A DNA stretch of 64,000 bases, from the sequence record MH051916; one strand, 5' to 3'. The notes beneath the pieces are model-generated. The model saw only the letters and a program-made list of their open reading frames with translations, did no database searches and was not told where the DNA came from. Made by a program: the position numbers and the translations under genes. The stretch comes from Enterobacteria phage vB_EcoM_IME340. Shown here piece by piece: positions 3,127 through 56,881 of this stretch; positions within the stretch are counted from its first letter, which is position 1; every line of letters starts with the position of its first letter.

Positions 3127-3201
3127 GGCCCTGTAGCTGGAAGGTTCAAGCAAGCGACTCATAATCGCCAGATGGTGGTTCAATTCCACCCAGGGCCACC
3201 A
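3127..3201 (+). tRNA. tRNA with CAU anticodon (Ile2/lysidine type as in T4, or Met-like)
   Basis: Acceptor GGCCCTG/CAGGGCC, anticodon loop CTCATAA, T-loop GGTTCAATTCC, 3' ACCA; T4 carries an Ile tRNA with this anticodon. Confidence 0.7.
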
Positions 3202-3210
3202 AATTAATTT

Positions 3211-3297
3211 GGGGAGTTATCCCGTAGAGGTAGCGGTGTGGACTGTAAATTCATTGTCATTGCGACTCGGGTGGTTCGACTCCATCACTCCCCACCA
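3211..3297 (+). tRNA. tRNA-Tyr-like (anticodon GUA), class II with long variable arm
   Basis: Acceptor GGGGAGT/ACTCCCC, anticodon stem GTGGA/TTCAT with loop CTGTAAA, T-arm GGTGG-TTCGACT-CCATC, 3' ACCA; D-stem is only 3 bp so the call is less secure. Confidence 0.55.
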
Positions 3298-3301
3298 ATT
3301 T

Positions 3302-3376
3302 GGATGTGTAGCTCAATGGCAGAGCGATCGCCTGTTAAGCGATTGGTTATAGGTTCGAATCCTATCACGTCCGCCA
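3302..3376 (+). tRNA. tRNA-Asn (anticodon GUU)
   Basis: Acceptor GGATGTG/CACGTCC, D-arm GCTCAATGGCAGAGC, anticodon loop CTGTTAA, T-loop GGTTCGAATCC, 3' GCCA. Confidence 0.75.
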
Positions 3377-3380
3377 AATC

Positions 3381-3456
3381 CGAGGCATAGCTCAGAAGGA
3401 AGAGCAAGGACCTTCTAAGTCCTAGGTCGTAGGTTCGATCCCTACTGCCTCGACCA
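3381..3456 (+). tRNA. tRNA-Arg (anticodon UCU)
   Basis: Acceptor CGAGGCA/TGCCTCG, D-arm GCTCAGAAGGAAGAGC, anticodon loop CTTCTAA, T-loop GGTTCGATCCC, 3' ACCA. Confidence 0.8.
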
Positions 3457-3472
3457 ATTAAGTGAGGAAAAT

Positions 3473-3823
3473 ATGAAAGGTAATGTTTATTTAGTAGTTC
3501 ATGATTTAACATTCTATTTTAATCACAATGACACTGTTATTTCTGAACGTGTAATTAATTTACTTTATCAGCATGCAGATTATGTTTATGTCGAAAACGA
3601 ATACGGTCATTGGCAATTTCTCAAAAATCGTTCATTTGGTTTAGATGGTTACGAATACTTTGAACGTAAAGACCTTTTAGATAAAATTCCATTATCTACA
3701 CAATATCAAAATCACAAGTCTTTACATAAATGTCGGCTAATTCGAAATGCTGAATCTGCTTATGAAGCAATTGATTTATGGCGTAAACGCCGTGAACAGA
3801 TTGATGCTTTAAAAGAATACTAA
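3473..3823 (+). CDS. hypothetical protein
   Basis: 116 aa ORF starting 17 bp after tRNA-Arg with SD GAGGAAAATATG. Confidence 0.55.
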   Translation: MKGNVYLVVHDLTFYFNHNDTVISERVINLLYQHADYVYVENEYGHWQFLKNRSFGLDGYEYFERKDLLDKIPLSTQYQNHKSLHKCRLIRNAESAYEAIDLWRKRREQIDALKEY

Positions 3824-3829
3824 GAAACC

Positions 3830-4129
3830 GGGTCGCTACCGGTAAGTCGTCGGACTGATGTTCCCTGGAGTATAGTTTCTCCCACAGTTTTACTGTGTTC
3901 TGATTCTTTACTATCACAGCAGAAACGGCGCACAGAATTATCGATTCGAGGAAATATCTTTGCCGTAAGCCGAGTAGCGTTTTTGACGGAACGTTCGGAT
4001 ATGGTCGAGATATGGCCTTTTAAAAATATTAAGTAGCGTCAACTGCTTAATAACCGGGTTCGAATCCCGGCGTTTCGTACAAACACTTGCCTTAGCAGGT
4101 GGAACCCCGACAAGGTTGCCGCAAGGCTT
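3830..4129 (+). ncRNA. candidate structured stable RNA(s); contains a tRNA-like T-arm
   Basis: About 300 nt with no credible ORF in a dense genome; CCGGG-TTCGAAT-CCCGG T-arm motif at 4054-4072; ends at an intrinsic terminator; T4 encodes stable RNAs (species 1 and 2) beside its tRNAs. Confidence 0.35.
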
Positions 4130-36502: not shown

Positions 36503-37705
36503 ATGAAAGTATGCATTTTTATGGCTCGAGGTCTTGAAGGTTGCGGTGTAACTAAATTTTCTCTTGAGCAGCGTGATTGGTTTATTAAAAATGGTCATGA
36601 AGTAACTTTGGTTTATGCTAAAGATAAATCATTTACTCGTAATTGCGCGCATGATTATAAGTCATTTTCAATTCCAGTTTTATTGGCAAAAGAATACGAT
36701 AAAACACTTAAGCTGGTAAATGATTGTGATATTCTAATTATCAATTCAGTTCCTGCTACTTCAGTAGAAGAAGACACCATTAATAACTATAAAAAAATTA
36801 TTGATAACATTAAACCTTCGGTTCGTGTTGTAGTTTATCAGCATGACCATTCTTCTCTTTCTTTACGCCGAAATTTGGGATTAGAAGAAACTGTTCGTCG
36901 AGCTGATGTTATTTTTAGCCATTCTGATAATGGTGATTTTAATAAAGTTTTAATGAAAGAATGGTATCCGGAAACTGTTTCTTTGTTTGATGATATTGAA
37001 GAAGCACCGACCGTATATAACTTTCAGCCTCCTATGGATATTGCGAAGGTTCGATCAACCTACTGGAAAGATGTTTCTGAAATTAACATGAATGTTAACC
37101 GTTGGATTGGTCGTACTACTACATGGAAAGGTTTTTATCAGATGTTTGATTTTCACGAAAAACATCTTAAACCTGCAGGACTAAGTACTATTATGGAAGG
37201 TCTGGAACGTTCTCCAGCGTTCATTCCTATTAAAGAAAAAGGAATTCCATACGAGTATTATCGTCTTCATCAAGTAGACCAAATTAAAATTGCTCCTAAT
37301 TTGCCAACGCAAATTCTCGACCGCTATGTAAATAGCGAAATGCTTGAACGCATGAGTAAATCCGGATTTGGTTATCAGCTAAGCAAGTTGGACAAAAAAT
37401 ATCTACAACGTTCTTTAGAATATACTCATCTCGAGCTTGGTGCATGTGGAACAATTCCGGTATTTTGGAAATCTACTGGCGAAAATTTAAAATTCCGTGT
37501 TGATAATACTCCTTTGACCTCACATGATAGCGGTATCATTTGGTTTGATGAAAATGATATGGAATCAACATTTGAACGTATTAAAGAACTGTCATCTGAC
37601 CGAGCTCTTTATGACCGTGAGCGAGAAAAAGCATATGAATTTTTGTATCAGCATCAAGATTCAAGCTTCTGCTTTAAAGAACAGTTTGACATTATTACAA
37701 AATAA
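36503..37705 (+). CDS. a-gt: DNA alpha-glucosyltransferase
   Basis: 400 aa; ..ICIFMARGLEGCGVTKFSLEQRDWFIKNGHEVTLVYAKDKSFTR.. matches remembered T4 alpha-gt. Confidence 0.9.
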   Translation: MKVCIFMARGLEGCGVTKFSLEQRDWFIKNGHEVTLVYAKDKSFTRNCAHDYKSFSIPVLLAKEYDKTLKLVNDCDILIINSVPATSVEEDTINNYKKIIDNIKPSVRVVVYQHDHSSLSLRRNLGLEETVRRADVIFSHSDNGDFNKVLMKEWYPETVSLFDDIEEAPTVYNFQPPMDIAKVRSTYWKDVSEINMNVNRWIGRTTTWKGFYQMFDFHEKHLKPAGLSTIMEGLERSPAFIPIKEKGIPYEYYRLHQVDQIKIAPNLPTQILDRYVNSEMLERMSKSGFGYQLSKLDKKYLQRSLEYTHLELGACGTIPVFWKSTGENLKFRVDNTPLTSHDSGIIWFDENDMESTFERIKELSSDRALYDREREKAYEFLYQHQDSSFCFKEQFDIITK

Positions 37706-44436: not shown

Positions 44437-47133
44437 ATGAAAGAATTTTATATCTCTATTGAAACAGTCGGAAATAACATTGTTGAACGTTATATTGATG
44501 AAAACGGAAAGGAACGTACTCGTGAAGTAGAATATCTTCCGACTATGTTTAGACACTGTAAGGAAGAATCAAAATACAAAGACATTTACGGTAAAAACTG
44601 CGCTCCTCAAAAATTTCCATCAATGAAAGATGCCCGAGATTGGATGAAACGAATGGAAGACATCGGTCTCGAAGCTCTCGGTATGAACGATTTTAAACTC
44701 GCTTATATCAGTGATACATATGGTTCAGAAATTGTTTATGACCGAAAATTTGTTCGTGTAGCTAATTGTGACATTGAGGTTACTGGCGATAAATTTCCTG
44801 ACCCAATGAAAGCAGAATATGAAATTGATGCTATCACTCATTATGATTCAATTGACGACCGTTTTTACGTCTTTGATTTGTTGAATTCAATGTACGGTTC
44901 AGTATCAAAATGGGATGCAAAGTTAGCTGCTAAACTTGACTGTGAAGGTGGTGATGAAGTTCCTCAAGAAATTCTTGACCGAGTAATTTATATGCCATTT
45001 GATAATGAGCGTGATATGCTCATGGAATATATTAATCTCTGGGAACAGAAACGACCTGCTATTTTTACTGGTTGGAATATTGAGGGATTTGACGTTCCGT
45101 ATATCATGAATCGTGTTAAAATGGTTCTCGGCGAACGTAGTATGAAACGCTTCTCTCCAATCGGTCGAGTAAAATCTAAACTAATTCAAAATATGTACGG
45201 TAGCAAAGAAATTTATTCTATTGATGGCGTATCTATTCTTGATTATTTAGATTTGTACAAGAAATTCGCATTTACTAATTTGCCATCATTCTCTTTGGAA
45301 TCAGTTGCTCAGCACGAAACCAAAAAAGGTAAATTACCATATGATGGTCCTATTAATAAACTTCGCGAGACTAATCATCAACGATACATTAGTTATAACA
45401 TTATTGACGTAGAATCAGTTCAAGCAATTGATAAAATTCGTGGGTTTATCGATCTAGTTTTAAGTATGTCTTATTATGCTAAAATGCCTTTTTCTGGCGT
45501 AATGAGTCCTATTAAAACTTGGGATGCTATTATTTTTAACTCACTGAAAGGTGAACATAAGGTTATTCCTCAACAAGGTTCGCACGTTAAACAAAGTTTT
45601 CCAGGTGCATTTGTGTTTGAACCTAAACCGATTGCTCGTCGATACATTATGAGTTTTGACTTGACGTCTCTGTATCCTAGCATTATTCGTCAGGTTAACA
45701 TTAGTCCTGAGACTATTCGTGGGCAGTTTAAAGTTCATCCAATTCATGAATACATCGCAGGAACAGCTCCTAAGCCAAGTGATGAATATTCTTGTTCTCC
45801 GAATGGATGGATGTATGATAAGCATCAAGAAGGTATCATTCCAAAGGAAATCGCTAAAGTATTTTTCCAACGTAAAGATTGGAAAAAGAAAATGTTCGCC
45901 GAAGAAATGAATGCCGAAGCTATTAAAAAGATTATTATGAAAGGCGCAGGGTCTTGTTCAACTAAACCAGAAGTTGAACGATATGTTAAGTTCAATGATG
46001 ATTTCTTAAACGAATTATCGAATTACACCGAATCTGTTCTTAATAGTCTGATTGAAGAATGTGAAAAAGCAGCTACACTTGCTAACACAAATCAGCTAAA
46101 CCGTAAAATTCTTATCAACAGTCTTTATGGTGCTCTTGGTAACATTCATTTCCGTTACTATGATTTGCGAAATGCTACTGCTATCACAATTTTTGGTCAA
46201 GTCGGTATTCAGTGGATTGCTCGTAAAATTAATGAATACCTGAATAAGGTGTGTGGAACTGATGGTGAAGATTTCATCGCAGCAGGTGATACTGATTCTG
46301 TATATGTTTGCGTAGATAAAGTTATTGAAAAAGTAGGTCTTGACCGCTTTAAAGAACAAAATGATTTAGTTGAATTCATGAATCAGTTCGGTAAGAAAAA
46401 GATGGAACCTATGATTGATGTTGCATATCGTGAGTTATGTGATTATATGAATAACCGCGAGCATCTGATGCATATGGACCGTGAAGCTATTTCTTGTCCA
46501 CCGCTTGGTTCAAAGGGTGTTGGTGGATTTTGGAAAGCGAAAAAACGTTATGCTCTGAACGTTTATGATATGGAAGATAAACGATTTGCTGAACCGCATC
46601 TAAAAATCATGGGTATGGAAACTCAACAAAGTTCAACACCAAAAGCAGTACAAGAAGCTCTCGAAGAAAGTATTCGTCGTATTCTTCAGGAAGGTGAAGA
46701 GTCTGTCCAAGAATACTACAAGAACTTTGAGAAAGAATATCGTCAGCTTGACTATAAAGTTATTGCTGAAGTAAAAACCGCGAACGATATAGCTAAATAT
46801 GATGATAAAGGTTGGCCAGGATTTAAATGCCCGTTCCACATTCGTGGTGTGCTAACTTATCGTCGAGCTGTTAATGGTTTAGGTGTAGCTCCAATTTTGG
46901 ATGGAAATAAGGTAATGGTTCTTCCATTACGTGAGGGAAATCCATTTGGTGACAAGTGCATTGCTTGGCCATCGGGTACGGAACTTCCAAAAGAAATTCG
47001 TTCTGATGTACTGTCTTGGATTGACTACTCAACTTTGTTCCAAAAATCGTTTGTTAAACCGCTTGCGGGTATGTGTGAATCGGCAGGTATGGACTATGAG
47101 GAAAAAGCTTCGTTAGACTTCCTGTTTGGCTGA
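44437..47133 (+). CDS. 43: DNA polymerase gp43 (family B)
   Basis: 898 aa; exonuclease motifs (..NCDIEV..), polymerase motifs DLTSLYPSII, KILINSLYG, GDTDSV. Confidence 0.95.
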   Translation: MKEFYISIETVGNNIVERYIDENGKERTREVEYLPTMFRHCKEESKYKDIYGKNCAPQKFPSMKDARDWMKRMEDIGLEALGMNDFKLAYISDTYGSEIVYDRKFVRVANCDIEVTGDKFPDPMKAEYEIDAITHYDSIDDRFYVFDLLNSMYGSVSKWDAKLAAKLDCEGGDEVPQEILDRVIYMPFDNERDMLMEYINLWEQKRPAIFTGWNIEGFDVPYIMNRVKMVLGERSMKRFSPIGRVKSKLIQNMYGSKEIYSIDGVSILDYLDLYKKFAFTNLPSFSLESVAQHETKKGKLPYDGPINKLRETNHQRYISYNIIDVESVQAIDKIRGFIDLVLSMSYYAKMPFSGVMSPIKTWDAIIFNSLKGEHKVIPQQGSHVKQSFPGAFVFEPKPIARRYIMSFDLTSLYPSIIRQVNISPETIRGQFKVHPIHEYIAGTAPKPSDEYSCSPNGWMYDKHQEGIIPKEIAKVFFQRKDWKKKMFAEEMNAEAIKKIIMKGAGSCSTKPEVERYVKFNDDFLNELSNYTESVLNSLIEECEKAATLANTNQLNRKILINSLYGALGNIHFRYYDLRNATAITIFGQVGIQWIARKINEYLNKVCGTDGEDFIAAGDTDSVYVCVDKVIEKVGLDRFKEQNDLVEFMNQFGKKKMEPMIDVAYRELCDYMNNREHLMHMDREAISCPPLGSKGVGGFWKAKKRYALNVYDMEDKRFAEPHLKIMGMETQQSSTPKAVQEALEESIRRILQEGEESVQEYYKNFEKEYRQLDYKVIAEVKTANDIAKYDDKGWPGFKCPFHIRGVLTYRRAVNGLGVAPILDGNKVMVLPLREGNPFGDKCIAWPSGTELPKEIRSDVLSWIDYSTLFQKSFVKPLAGMCESAGMDYEEKASLDFLFG

Positions 47134-47146
47134 TAGAATAAATCTA

Positions 47147-47167
47147 GGGACCTCCGGGTCCCTTTTT
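47147..47167 (+). terminator. rho-independent terminator
   Basis: GGGACC-TCCG-GGTCCC followed by TTTTT. Confidence 0.8.
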
Positions 47168-47225
47168 CATACAAGTAATATAAATCTATACTTAGGAAAA
47201 ATAGGTGATTCTGGACTTCTGGAAT

Positions 47226-47314
47226 TCATTAAAATTTTTTTCACAAAACTGTTTACAAGACTGTTCTTCCGTGGTACTATACAACTATCAACTGATACGG
47301 ATTTGGAGAATGAA
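47226..47314 (+). repeat. repeated early promoter-leader cassette (PeSL-like), copy C
   Basis: Matches copies at 4955 and 20805 including GGTACTATACAACTATCAACTGATACGGATTTGGAGAAT. Confidence 0.75.
47251..47282 (+). promoter_or_regulatory. sigma70-type early promoter
   Basis: GTTTAC 47251-47256, -10 TACTAT 47275-47280. Confidence 0.65.
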
Positions 47315-47695
47315 ATGAAAATCGCTATTTTGGTTATTACATTGGGTCTTACTGGTTGTGTAGCTCAAGGACCGGTAGTAAATCAATCTGATGTAGGAAA
47401 AATTGTAAACTGTTCAAGCAAATTTTATAATCCTAATGTTAAGTGTTATAAAGAAGCTCCAAAACAGACAGTAGAACAAATGCAGGCGAATTTTGACGAA
47501 GCTATTCGTCCAGATGAATCTGCCCAAGCATATCGTAATTCAGATGTAATTACACGCGAAGAAAAAATTGAAAGCTACTGCGCTGAACTTTGGGCAAATT
47601 GGGCTAATAATTACCAATGGCGTACTGGTAAAAATGCTCCGATGGAGTATGTAGTGAATTCTTATAATTCATGTGTAAAAAATTTGACTAAGTGA
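47315..47695 (+). CDS. lipoprotein
   Basis: ATG 47315; signal peptide with lipobox LTGC; track ORF 47126 is a spurious extension through the promoter. Confidence 0.6.
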   Translation: MKIAILVITLGLTGCVAQGPVVNQSDVGKIVNCSSKFYNPNVKCYKEAPKQTVEQMQANFDEAIRPDESAQAYRNSDVITREEKIESYCAELWANWANNYQWRTGKNAPMEYVVNSYNSCVKNLTK

Positions 47696-47702
47696 GGAAA
47701 AC

Positions 47703-47954
47703 ATGGAAACTTTAGTAGCAGGTTCAATTTTTATGGTTTTAGTTTCAGGCGTGTTGGCTATTATTATATACATGCTTCCGTGGTTCATCGCCTTGATGCG
47801 CGGGTCAAAATCGACAGTAGGAATCTTTTTCACATCTTTACTGTTTAACTGGTCAATCATTGGTTGGTTTATTACATTTATTTGGTCAATTGCGGGTGAA
47901 ACTAAAAAATCTGTACAGCAAAATCAAGTAATTATCATCAGAGAGAAGGAATGA
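47703..47954 (+). CDS. imm: superinfection immunity protein Imm (membrane)
   Basis: 83 aa two-helix membrane protein between 43 and 42, as for T4 imm. Confidence 0.65.
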   Translation: METLVAGSIFMVLVSGVLAIIIYMLPWFIALMRGSKSTVGIFFTSLLFNWSIIGWFITFIWSIAGETKKSVQQNQVIIIREKE

Positions 47955-48100
47955 AAAGCAAAATTTTAGCAGTATTGCTTTTAATCTTGATGATTATAAT
48001 AAGTATATACTATAGCGTAGCAGTTCCTTGTATGATTCCAACGCTTATTATAGGTTGGAGTTTATTACTGTTACAAGTTAAATATGAATGTATCAATTGA
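47951..48100 (+). CDS. small membrane protein (49 aa)
   Basis: ATG overlapping imm stop; hydrophobic. Confidence 0.35.
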   Translation: MKSKILAVLLLILMIIISIYYSVAVPCMIPTLIIGWSLLLLQVKYECIN

Positions 48101-48107
48101 GGTTTAA

Positions 48108-48848
48108 ATGATTAATGACTCTATGACAGTTGAAGAAATCCGTCTTCATTTGGGAATTGCATTAAAGGAAAAAGATTTCGTAATTGATAAAACCGGTGTT
48201 AAAACTATTGAAATTATTGGCGCATCATTTGTAGCAGATGAACCTTTTATTTTTGGTGCTCTTAATGACGAATACATTCAGCGTGAACTTGAATGGTATA
48301 AGTCTCAAAGTTTGTTTGTTAAAGATATTCCAGGTGAAACACCAAAGATTTGGCAGCAGGTAGCATCTTCTAAAGGCGAAATTAACTCGAATTATGGTTG
48401 GGCCATCTGGTCAGAAGATAACTATGCCCAGTATGATATGTGTTTAGCTGAACTTGGTCAAAATCCTGATTCTCGACGTGGTATCATGATTTATACTCGT
48501 CCATCCATGCAGTTTGACTACAACAAAGATGGTATGTCAGATTTCATGTGTACGAATACAGTACAGTACCTGATTCGTGATAAGAAAGTCAATGCAGTGG
48601 TTAACATGCGTTCAAATGACGTGGTCTTCGGATTCCGTAATGATTATGCATGGCAAAAATACGTAATAGATAAATTAGTATCTGATTTGAATGCAGGTGA
48701 TTCAACTCGCCAGTATAAAGCAGGTTCTATTATATGGAATGTCGGAAGCCTTCATGTGTATTCTCGTCATTTTTATTTGGTTGACCATTGGTGGAAAACT
48801 GGCGAAACTCATATTGCGAAAAAAGATTATAACGGTGAGTGGAAATGA
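48108..48848 (+). CDS. 42: dCMP hydroxymethylase
   Basis: 246 aa; MI.DSMTVEEIRLHLG..KTGVKTIEIIGASFVADEPFIFGALNDEYIQRELEWYKS.. matches remembered T4 gp42. Confidence 0.9.
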   Translation: MINDSMTVEEIRLHLGIALKEKDFVIDKTGVKTIEIIGASFVADEPFIFGALNDEYIQRELEWYKSQSLFVKDIPGETPKIWQQVASSKGEINSNYGWAIWSEDNYAQYDMCLAELGQNPDSRRGIMIYTRPSMQFDYNKDGMSDFMCTNTVQYLIRDKKVNAVVNMRSNDVVFGFRNDYAWQKYVIDKLVSDLNAGDSTRQYKAGSIIWNVGSLHVYSRHFYLVDHWWKTGETHIAKKDYNGEWK

Positions 48849-49687
48849 TTCAATTCGTAATTCCAAGCTATCAACGCGTAGGGGCAGTTTCTGCCCTTGA
48901 TATGTTTCCGACTGATTATGAACCTCATATTGTAGTACGTGAACACGAAGAAAAAGCTTATTATGACGCTTATGGGTCTAGAGCTAAAATTGTAGTTATT
49001 CCCGATGATGTAAATGGAATTGCTGGAACTCGTAAAGCAATTACTGATATGTATGCAGGTCAACGAATTTGGATGATTGATGATGATACTACTATTCGTA
49101 TGAGTTCAATGCGAAAGAAAGATGATCGTCGCTGCGTAGATAAAATTAATCAGTTAACCCGTGAGCAGTTCTATGAATTGATTCAATACGTTGAAGATGC
49201 CATGGATTGCGGGTATTATCATGGTCATGCTCGTCTACCAATTTTTAAAATTACTTCATCTTGGGGTAATTATCGTGAAAATTCATATGGATTCACGAAT
49301 ACATGGTATGATTTAGGAAAACTTACAACAGAACAAATTGGGTATGGAAAAATTGATTTATGCGAAGATATGTATGCATTTCTCAATTTAATTAATCAAG
49401 GTTATCCACATTTGGCCTTGTTCAAATATCTGGTTGTATCCGGAAAAGCACAAGCTCCTGGCGGATGCAGCTCAATTCGTAGTAATTCTAAACATAATAG
49501 AGCGCTTGAGCAAATCAATAGAGAATTTCCAGAGCAAGCTCGTTGGAAAACATCGAATATTGAAAAGAGAAAATCGTTGGGTGAAGAAGATGAGCCATTA
49601 AAGGTTCTTCGCATGTGTGTTTCGCGCAAAGAAAAATCAGAAGCGTTTCATAAGTTTAATGCTATTCATCCAATAGCAGTTGATTAA
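48845..49687 (+). CDS. putative DNA-modifying glycosyltransferase occupying the T4 beta-gt locus (not T4 beta-gt-like)
   Basis: ATG 48845 overlaps gene 42 stop (ATGA); 280 aa with DDD motif (IWMIDDDTT); position between 42 and uvsX; sequence unlike remembered T4 beta-gt. Confidence 0.5.
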   Translation: MIQFVIPSYQRVGAVSALDMFPTDYEPHIVVREHEEKAYYDAYGSRAKIVVIPDDVNGIAGTRKAITDMYAGQRIWMIDDDTTIRMSSMRKKDDRRCVDKINQLTREQFYELIQYVEDAMDCGYYHGHARLPIFKITSSWGNYRENSYGFTNTWYDLGKLTTEQIGYGKIDLCEDMYAFLNLINQGYPHLALFKYLVVSGKAQAPGGCSSIRSNSKHNRALEQINREFPEQARWKTSNIEKRKSLGEEDEPLKVLRMCVSRKEKSEAFHKFNAIHPIAVD

Positions 49688-49764
49688 TGCCTAAATTTAT
49701 TGTGTTATAATTACCCTATCTTTAACCAGTGAGGAAAATATAATGATGCCTATGGAAAAAATGA

Positions 49765-50946
49765 ATGTCTATTGCAGATTTAAAATCCCGTTTGATTAAA
49801 GCTTCCACTTCTAAAATGACTGCTGAACTGACTACATCTAAATTCTTTAATGAAAAGGATGTAATCCGTACAAAAATCCCAATGCTTAATATTGCTATTT
49901 CCGGTGCGATTGATGGTGGTATGCAGTCTGGTTTAACCATTTTTGCAGGTCCTTCTAAACACTTTAAATCAAATATGTCTTTGACTATGGTTGCGGCGTA
50001 TTTGAACAAATATCCTGATGCAGTTTGTCTATTTTATGATAGCGAATTTGGTATCACTCCAGCTTATTTGCGATCCATGGGAGTTGACCCGGAACGAGTA
50101 ATTCATACACCAATTCAGTCAGTTGAACAACTGAAAATTGATATGGTGAATCAGCTTGAAGCTATCGAGCGTGGTGAAAAAGTTATTGTATTCATCGACT
50201 CAATCGGTAATATGGCTTCTAAGAAAGAAACGGAAGATGCCTTGAATGAAAAATCTGTGGCAGATATGACTCGTGCTAAATCACTGAAGTCATTATTCCG
50301 TATTGTTACTCCTTATTTTAGTATTAAAAACATTCCATGTGTTGCGGTTAACCATACAATTGAAACAATTGAAATGTTTAGTAAAACCGTGATGACAGGC
50401 GGTACAGGCGTAATGTATTCGGCTGATACTGTATTCATTATCGGTAAGCGCCAGATTAAAGATGGTTCTGATCTTCAGGGGTATCAATTTGTTCTAAATG
50501 TAGAAAAATCTCGTACCGTTAAAGAAAAAAGTAAATTCTTTATTGATGTTAAATTTGACGGTGGTATCGATCCTTATTCTGGATTGTTAGATATGGCTCT
50601 TGAATTAGGATTTGTAGTAAAACCTAAAAATGGTTGGTATGCTCGTGAATTTCTTGATGAAGAAACCGGCGAGATGATTCGCGAAGAAAAATCTTGGCGC
50701 GCAAAAGATACTAATTGCACTACATTCTGGGGTCCTTTATTTAAACATCAGCCATTCCGAGATGCTATTAAACGTGCTTATCAATTAGGTGCTATTGATA
50801 GTAATGAAATTGTTGAAGCTGAAGTTGATGAATTGATTAACTCAAAGGTTGAAAAATTTAAATCTCCAGAAAGTAAAAGTAAATCAGCAGCTGATTTAGA
50901 AACTGACCTAGATCAGTTAAGTGATATGGAAGAATTTAATGAATAA
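49765..50946 (+). CDS. uvsX: recombinase UvsX (RecA-like)
   Basis: 393 aa; Walker A GPSKHFKS; long stretches match remembered T4 UvsX. Confidence 0.95.
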   Translation: MSIADLKSRLIKASTSKMTAELTTSKFFNEKDVIRTKIPMLNIAISGAIDGGMQSGLTIFAGPSKHFKSNMSLTMVAAYLNKYPDAVCLFYDSEFGITPAYLRSMGVDPERVIHTPIQSVEQLKIDMVNQLEAIERGEKVIVFIDSIGNMASKKETEDALNEKSVADMTRAKSLKSLFRIVTPYFSIKNIPCVAVNHTIETIEMFSKTVMTGGTGVMYSADTVFIIGKRQIKDGSDLQGYQFVLNVEKSRTVKEKSKFFIDVKFDGGIDPYSGLLDMALELGFVVKPKNGWYAREFLDEETGEMIREEKSWRAKDTNCTTFWGPLFKHQPFRDAIKRAYQLGAIDSNEIVEAEVDELINSKVEKFKSPESKSKSAADLETDLDQLSDMEEFNE

Positions 50947-51277
50947 AGATGATTTAGATTTAGAAATTATCGACGAATCCCCCTCTTCGGAGGGGGAAGA
51001 AGAAAGAAAAGAACGTCTTTTTAATGAATCTCTTAAGATAATTAAATCTGCCATGGAAAATGTTATCCAGGAGATTGTCATTAAACTAGAAGATGGTTCT
51101 ACACACATTGTGTATGTGACAAAATTAGATTGGGTTGATGGAAAAGTCGTAATGGACTTTGCTGTTCTTGACCAAGAAAGAAAAGCTGAGTTAGCTCCTC
51201 ATGTAGAAAAATGTATTACAATGCAACTACAAGATGCATTTAATAAAAGGTCAAAGAAAAAATTTAAATTCTTTTAA
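50939..51277 (+). CDS. 40: head vertex assembly chaperone gp40
   Basis: ATG 50939 overlapping uvsX 3' end; position between uvsX and 41. Confidence 0.65.
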   Translation: MNKDDLDLEIIDESPSSEGEEERKERLFNESLKIIKSAMENVIQEIVIKLEDGSTHIVYVTKLDWVDGKVVMDFAVLDQERKAELAPHVEKCITMQLQDAFNKRSKKKFKFF

Positions 51278-55710: not shown

Positions 55711-56361
55711 GTGAATTACCAAAAAATTTACTCGGCTTTAATTACAAAAGCTAAATGCCGGCATCTTGGCGGATATAAAGAACGCCATCATATAATTCCT
55801 AGATGTATGGGAGGAACAGATGGCAAAAACAATCTTGTTGAGTTAACTGCGCGTGAGCATTTTATAGCTCATAGATTATTAACTAAAATATATCCAGATG
55901 TGAGAGGATTGCATTATGCTGTAAATTTAATGCGATATAATAAAGGTGTTAAATTAACAAGTAGATTAATAGAAACCCTTAAAATCCAAAACTCCGTTCT
56001 TTTCTCGGGTGAAAATAATCCTAGATATGGCAAGCCGTCATGGATTAAAGGCAAAAAGACCCCAGAAGAAACTAAAGCCAAAATGCGTCTAGCTCATAAA
56101 GGTAAAATTATATCCGATGAAGCCAAGGCTAATATGAGTAAAGCCCGAAAAGGAAGATTTAGCGGTAAAAATTCACCTCGATATGGTTTACCAAATCCTA
56201 GGCGAGGAGAAATATGGAATAGTTATGATGCGCTTTATGAATTATGGGTTTATAATAATAGACCTAAACGCACAAAATTTAATAAAATAGCTGTCAAGGC
56301 AGGTTATCCTAATATCTGCTATAGACATATGATAGAAAACTTCATAAGAAAGGAAAAATAA
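55711..56361 (+). CDS. HNH homing-endonuclease-like protein
   Basis: GTG start after AAGGA; HNH motif ERHHIIPRCMGGTDGKNNLVELTAREHFIAH; repeated GxNNPRYGK DNA-binding modules. Confidence 0.75.
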   Translation: MNYQKIYSALITKAKCRHLGGYKERHHIIPRCMGGTDGKNNLVELTAREHFIAHRLLTKIYPDVRGLHYAVNLMRYNKGVKLTSRLIETLKIQNSVLFSGENNPRYGKPSWIKGKKTPEETKAKMRLAHKGKIISDEAKANMSKARKGRFSGKNSPRYGLPNPRRGEIWNSYDALYELWVYNNRPKRTKFNKIAVKAGYPNICYRHMIENFIRKEK

Positions 56362-56362
56362 C

Positions 56363-56881
56363 ATGCCACATTTCAACGAATGTAGTCAACTGATCGCTGG
56401 TGCAGATAAAGCTCAAAATGAATATTGGGATATTCTCGGTGACGAAAAAGACCCGCTGCAGGTTATGCTTGATATGCAGAAATCTCTACAGGTTCGTTTA
56501 GCTAAAGATAAACCTGAATATAATCGTCATCCTGATGATTTGGCTACTGCTGGTGAAGTTGTTGATTGGCTGCGTAATCAGAAAGATTATATTGACGATG
56601 AATTCCGTGAACTTCTGACATCTCTTGGTGGTATGAGCAATGGCGAAAAAGATGCATCTGCTGTATGGAAGCCTTGGAAAGCTCAACATGGTGAACGTCG
56701 TGAAACTCTGATTACTGATTTGTCTCCACAAGACCAGTTGGAAATTAAATTCGAAATGATTGATATTCTTCATTTCGTTCTGAACATGTTCCAAGGTCTT
56801 GGTCTTACGGCTGAAGAAATCTTTAAACTTTATTATCTGAAAAATGCTGAAAACTTCGCTCGTCAAGACCGAGGTTATTAA
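56363..56881 (+). CDS. 56: dCTPase/dUTPase gp56
   Basis: 172 aa; ..NEYWDILGDEKDPLQVMLDMQ.. and C-terminal ..EEIFKLYYLKN.ENFARQDRGY match remembered T4 gp56. Confidence 0.9.
   Translation: MPHFNECSQLIAGADKAQNEYWDILGDEKDPLQVMLDMQKSLQVRLAKDKPEYNRHPDDLATAGEVVDWLRNQKDYIDDEFRELLTSLGGMSNGEKDASAVWKPWKAQHGERRETLITDLSPQDQLEIKFEMIDILHFVLNMFQGLGLTAEEIFKLYYLKNAENFARQDRGY

Follow-up and report, generated by a model that had tools for sequence, protein, structure and literature searches.

The window analysed here, a stretch of 64,000 nucleotides taken at its whole length, is part of a Tequatrovirus genome and is approximately 97% identical to several T4-like phages of Escherichia, Shigella and Salmonella. 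Its genes lie in the order alpha-gt, 47, 46, 45, 44, 62, regA, 43, imm, 42, ba-gt, uvsX, 40, 41, 61 and 56, and the gene of interest, ba-gt (also named g-gt, ggt or TAGT), is found between gene 42 and uvsX, from which it is separated by 77 nt. The features on which the analysis draws are listed below.

36503–37705, plus strand: alpha-gt, DNA alpha-glucosyltransferase, which would make the alpha-glucosyl-5hmC acceptor for ba-gt (tblastn)
48108–48848, plus strand: gene 42, dCMP hydroxymethylase, source of the 5hm-dCMP precursor (tblastn with T4 gp42, 95.9% identity, full length)
48845–48848, plus strand: ATGA overlap of the ba-gt start codon and the gene 42 stop codon (read from the sequence)
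48845–49687, plus strand: ba-gt, very probably a beta-glucosyl-HMC-alpha-glucosyltransferase, 280 aa (read from the sequence)
49079–49087, plus strand: codons D79-D80-D81, predicted DXD-type motif of a GT-A fold (invariant in the alignment, after strand 74–78 of the AlphaFold model)
49765–50946, plus strand: uvsX (ORF list, and tblastn with T4 UvsX, 90.3% identity)
55711–56358, plus strand: homing-endonuclease-like ORF between genes 61 and 56 (98% to an ORF of phage JE01, 49% to the N-terminus of T4 MobB)
56363–56878, plus strand: gene 56, dCTPase of the hmC pathway (tblastn with T6 gp56, full length, just 70.9% identity)

A preliminary description of this DNA had placed a gene of 280 aa between gene 42 and uvsX, and the reading frame is indeed present there, running from an ATG at 48845 to a TAA at 49685–49687. 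The mechanical ORF list opens ba-gt further upstream, at a GTG at 48839, but the ATG is taken as the start because all homologues begin MIQFVIPSY. The TGA of gene 42 occupies 48846–48848, and the tetranucleotide ATGA is common to both genes; the same junction with gene 42 is found in T2 and in both T6 records. This is a classic layout for translational coupling, by which translation of ba-gt is probably tied to that of gene 42. Within positions 47000–51000, a scan for sigma-70-like promoters returned 16 sites where 16.4 were expected, nothing above chance, and a terminator scan gave three hairpins against 1.8 expected, again at chance level, the sole one near ba-gt falling within coding sequence. 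With counts so close to chance, a promoter or terminator belonging to ba-gt itself was rejected. The hairpin near ba-gt, a 9-bp GC-rich one (TAGGGGCAGTTTCTGCCCTTG), is located at 48879–48899 on the plus strand, in codons 12–18 of ba-gt, and its stem is kept in T6.

The presence of both gene 42 and alpha-gt, on which the preliminary description had relied, is borne out by full-length tblastn matches to each. The window alpha-gt is closest to that of T2 (99.25% identity, compared with 91.5% for T6 and 91.25% for T4, each match being full length). At the far end of the cluster, T2 carries dam in the interval between genes 61 and 56 where the window has the homing-endonuclease-like ORF, and the window yielded no homologue of dam. 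Genes neighbouring gene 56 are 98–99% identical, while gene 56 itself, at 70.9% to T6 gp56, looks like a divergent allele beside a mobile endonuclease. Upstream of gene 42, the 153-nt 'gap' that follows imm is filled by a strongly hydrophobic ORF of 49 aa (MKSKILAVLLLILMIIISIYYSVAVPCMIPTLIIGWSLLLLQVKYECIN; 47951–48100, plus strand), whose ATG overlaps the imm stop codon in another ATGA. This frame is also open in T4, T2 and T6, with changes that exchange one hydrophobic residue for another, and carries no annotation in NC_000866, AP018813, MH550421 or PQ471460; it may encode an unannotated small membrane protein.

Relationship to the T2 and T6 enzymes

The protein encoded by ba-gt is identical to the product of the same-slot ORF at 274 of 280 positions in T2 (97.9%; AP018813) and at 272 of 280 in T6 (97.1%; MH550421). 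It matches PHROG 842, 'beta-glucosyl-HMC-alpha-glucosyltransferase', over residues 1–275 with an E-value of 5.9e-89, and Pfam PF20691 (TAGT) over profile positions 2–205 of 205 with 40.4 bits against a gathering cutoff of 27.5; most of its homologues likewise have a precomputed PF20691 assignment. A Pfam 'RNA_binding' match (E 0.15, below cutoff) was dismissed. The position between gene 42 and uvsX, in lieu of T4 b-gt, is the layout of T2 and T6, and in both of these phages the length of 280 aa, the slot, the ATGA overlap and the alpha-gt partner are all as in the window, where ba-gt occurs together with alpha-gt, gene 42 and gene 56. The orthology is plain, as are the gene position, the family and fold membership, the alpha-gt partner and the genes of the hmC pathway. 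We conclude with high confidence that the window ORF is orthologous to the gene for the T2/T6 beta-glucosyl-HMC-alpha-glucosyltransferase, and its product would add a second glucose to alpha-glucosyl-5hmC; the earlier reading of a T2/T6-type second-sugar transferase agrees with these identities and with the PHROG, TAGT and GT-A assignments. The original sequencing is attributed to Winkler and Rueger (1993, NAR 21:1500).

Six substitutions separate the window protein from that of T2 (R11H, V50I, V51T, K92R, I101V and P251S), and seven, together with the stop codon of the T6 record, from that of T6; a functional difference cannot be inferred from them. The gene is intact in T2 and in the window. 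Two public T6 records carry different lesions in this gene. In MH550421 (7138–7980, minus strand) codon 10 is TAG, and the coding sequence is annotated as 'ggt' from Met20, with 261 aa; the same codon is CAA in the window and T2 and CAG in the second T6 record, AP018814. In the latter (3135–3974, minus strand) an in-frame deletion of 3 nt turns the invariant DDD into DD and leaves 279 aa. These lesions are odd, because T6 is reported to carry gentiobiosyl-5hmC at 72%; they could be mutations of laboratory stocks or sequencing errors.

Full-length ba-gt is found in 473 phage records at a DNA identity of at least 90% (90–98%; megablast, phage collection), many of them so named, and T4 b-gt DNA in 29 records of the collection. 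On these counts ba-gt is the rule in Tequatrovirus and T4 the exception, a conclusion also reached by a 2026 survey (PMC13216743). The preliminary description had called the glycosyltransferase 'different'; this holds relative to T4 but not for Tequatrovirus, where the gene is common. Approximately 200 further homologues at 60–80% identity were detected by tblastn in T4-like phages of Klebsiella, Enterobacter, Salmonella and Citrobacter. A search of a large protein database returned 10 clusters, all of T4-like phage proteins at 48–99% identity, the distant TET-associated members lying beyond its reach. The public annotation of the gene 42/ba-gt locus is unreliable: many records name gene 42 'thymidylate synthase' or ba-gt 'hypothetical protein', and in some records (RB55, RB59) a true T4-type b-gt gene is labelled 'beta-glucosyl-HMC-alpha-glucosyl-transferase'.

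Fold and the DDD motif

The window protein was aligned with eight homologues of 48–99% identity from the large protein database, and all 96 positions that are invariant among these nine members are kept in it. The acidic DDD motif noted in the preliminary description is D79-D80-D81, invariant in nine of nine. No solved structure was found among the relatives of ba-gt, and an AlphaFold2 model was built from the alignment (pTM 0.79, mean pLDDT 76). Confidence is mostly near 90 over the N-terminal 130 residues and falls below 50 at residues 132–140, 193–211 and 238–247, and three C-terminal loops are poorly defined; the low confidence of the C-terminal third leaves the binding site for DNA and acceptor undefined.

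The model matches GT-A glycosyltransferases, and it predicts a Rossmann-like GT-A fold that binds a nucleotide sugar, with the DXD ending a central strand. The DDD follows directly upon model strand 74–78, the fourth strand, which is the canonical place of a DXD. In GT-A enzymes, the DXD motif binds a divalent cation that holds the diphosphate of UDP, and D79–D81 would be expected to act in this way. Since UDP-alpha-glucose serves as donor and the bond formed is beta-1,6, the enzyme would have to invert configuration.

The family to which ba-gt is assigned, the TET-associated glycosyltransferases (TAGT, PF20691), has a GT-A fold near GT2; the profile matches ba-gt from end to end, and here too the DXD follows the fourth strand. 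There are differences from the TET-associated members. No TET/JBP dioxygenase takes part here, the hydroxymethyl group being supplied at nucleotide level by the dCMP hydroxymethylase of gene 42, and glucose is accepted not by 5hmC itself but by a sugar that the DNA already bears.

Two unrelated enzymes in one slot

The slot downstream of gene 42 is occupied by two unrelated enzymes in different phages and is a case of non-orthologous replacement, as has already been published (PMC13216743, PMC13390438). T4 b-gt shares with ba-gt this slot, the UDP-glucose donor, the post-replicative glucosylation of DNA and the beta linkage, but has no sequence similarity to it. BLASTP of the window protein against T4 beta-gt gave chance fragments only (best E 3.4), and a tblastn search of all 64 kb of the window with T4 beta-gt gave no match at E 1e-3; a homologue of T4 beta-gt was rejected on both counts, as the preliminary description had supposed in calling the product unlike the T4 enzyme. 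The folds also differ, T4 alpha-gt and beta-gt being GT-B enzymes (PDB 1XV5 and 1JG7, respectively, as cited in PMC13216743) and ba-gt being assigned to GT-A. The acceptor of T4 b-gt is bare 5hmC, whereas that of the T2/T6-type enzyme is alpha-glucosyl-5hmC. In T4, the next gene after b-gt is segA, for a homing endonuclease; neither b-gt nor segA is present in the window, and no segA lies between ba-gt and uvsX.

The shared slot could nonetheless suggest an enzyme functionally analogous to T4 beta-gt, which would glucosylate the bare 5hmC remaining after alpha-gt, or one with another sugar donor, such as an arabinose or N-acetylhexosamine donor. Distant TAGT members occur in phages that lack alpha-gt and beta-gt (PMC13216743), and the family is therefore not restricted to the addition of a second sugar. 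Such an activity is nevertheless very improbable for the window protein: it shares 98% identity with the T2/T6 enzyme, which makes gentiobiosyl-hmC (PMC11078745), and it keeps 96 of 96 invariant family positions. Furthermore, T2 and T6 DNA has approximately 25% of its 5hmC bare and contains no beta-monoglucosyl-5hmC (PMC6024577, PMC11078745), and the same has been reported for T2, T6 and related phages, with about 25% bare 5hmC and no beta-glucosyl-5hmC (PMC13390438; bioRxiv 10.64898/2026.02.25.707755).

The arabinosyltransferases of RB69-like phages (Mosigvirus) likewise place one or two sugars on the modified cytosines of Straboviridae DNA (PMC6024577, PMC13390438). By description they are set apart from ba-gt by another sugar, another base precursor (5-hydroxy-dC) and another genus, and the window has the Tequatrovirus set of gene 42 and alpha-gt. 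The identity of 98% to the T2 enzyme makes a sequence comparison with them moot.

Hypermodification pathway and host defence

Preferred here is the reading of ba-gt as the T2/T6-type second-glucose transferase, and the pathway that follows would proceed in steps. Gene 42, the dCTPase of gene 56 and the DNA polymerase of the phage would bring about the replacement of cytosine by 5-hydroxymethylcytosine. Once the DNA has been replicated, alpha-gt would add an alpha-linked glucose to about three quarters of the 5hmC, and ba-gt would then use UDP-glucose to join a further glucose, in beta-1,6 linkage, to this DNA-bound one, forming gentiobiosyl-5hmC. The disaccharide would alter which host defences can see the phage DNA. 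For the reaction, as for its consequences for defence, the source is the literature and not the window. With UDP-glucose as donor, the T2/T6 enzyme extends alpha-glucosyl-5hmC in DNA by a glucose in beta-1,6 linkage (PMC11078745, PMC6024577, PMC13216743), and deletion of ba-gt from T6 leaves only alpha-glucosyl-5hmC (PMC11078745). HPLC/MS of environmental Tequatrovirus isolates with alpha-gt and TAGT but without b-gt detected 5hm-dC, alpha-glucosyl-5hm-dC and alpha-gentiobiosyl-5hm-dC, and their TAGT is described as syntenic with T4 b-gt (PMC13390438).

How far the second glucosylation proceeds varies between phages. Gentiobiosyl (beta-1,6-glucosyl-alpha-glucosyl) 5hmC amounts to 5% in T2 and 72% in T6 (PMC6024577, PMC11078745), and since T2 and T6 differ approximately 14-fold with near-identical enzymes, the gentiobiosyl fraction is not readable from sequence. 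At positions 40, 55 and 106, where T6 differs from T2, the window protein has the T2 residues. One may speculate that these residues, together with the T2-type alpha-gt, hint at most at a T2-like low extent. There is a slim chance that the substitutions V50, V51, K92 and I101, or the fact that the partner alpha-gt is of T2 type, might cause the second glucose to be added to an unusual extent or in an unusual pattern, in which case this phage could help to explain the contrast between 5% and 72%.

A further reading holds that ba-gt is inactive or nearly irrelevant here, either as a decaying copy or because, as in T2, a few per cent of the hmC is diglucosylated. It would draw on T2, which has only about 5% gentiobiosyl-hmC (PMC6024577) with an alpha-gt 99.25% identical to that of the window, on the three T2 residues named above, and on the two lesioned T6 records, by which loss in culture seems to be tolerated. 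We consider it highly unlikely. The ORF is intact, with its full N-terminus, the DDD and every invariant residue, and its conservation in 473 genomes, at an identity of at least 90%, speaks for selection. A low extent would be a difference of degree and not of function.

The second-glucose transferase of T2/T6 type remains the favoured assignment, and it bears on defence much as the preliminary description had anticipated in proposing an altered sensitivity to modification-dependent restriction, an expectation upheld by the T6 deletion mutants. DNA of T6 lacking ba-gt is degradable in vitro by the Brig1 glycosylase, and the phage is more sensitive in vivo (PMC11078745); the deglucosylase BapA releases glucose from DNA of T6 lacking g-gt but not from that of wild-type T6 (bioRxiv 10.64898/2026.02.25.707755).

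The gene described here is one that textbooks cover and the literature fully describes, found where it ordinarily lies, and its identification offers no new biology but is useful for annotation and for the choice of phages. The DNA of this phage is expected to contain 5hmC in place of C, approximately three quarters of it alpha-glucosylated and about one quarter bare, and some share of the alpha-glucosylated part would carry gentiobiose. The phage is predicted to be open to attack by GmrSD-type enzymes as well as by Brig1 and Brig3, of which the former excises alpha-glucosyl-5hmC and the latter bare 5hmC, while sites that bear the disaccharide are predicted to be shielded against Brig1 and the deglucosylase BapA.
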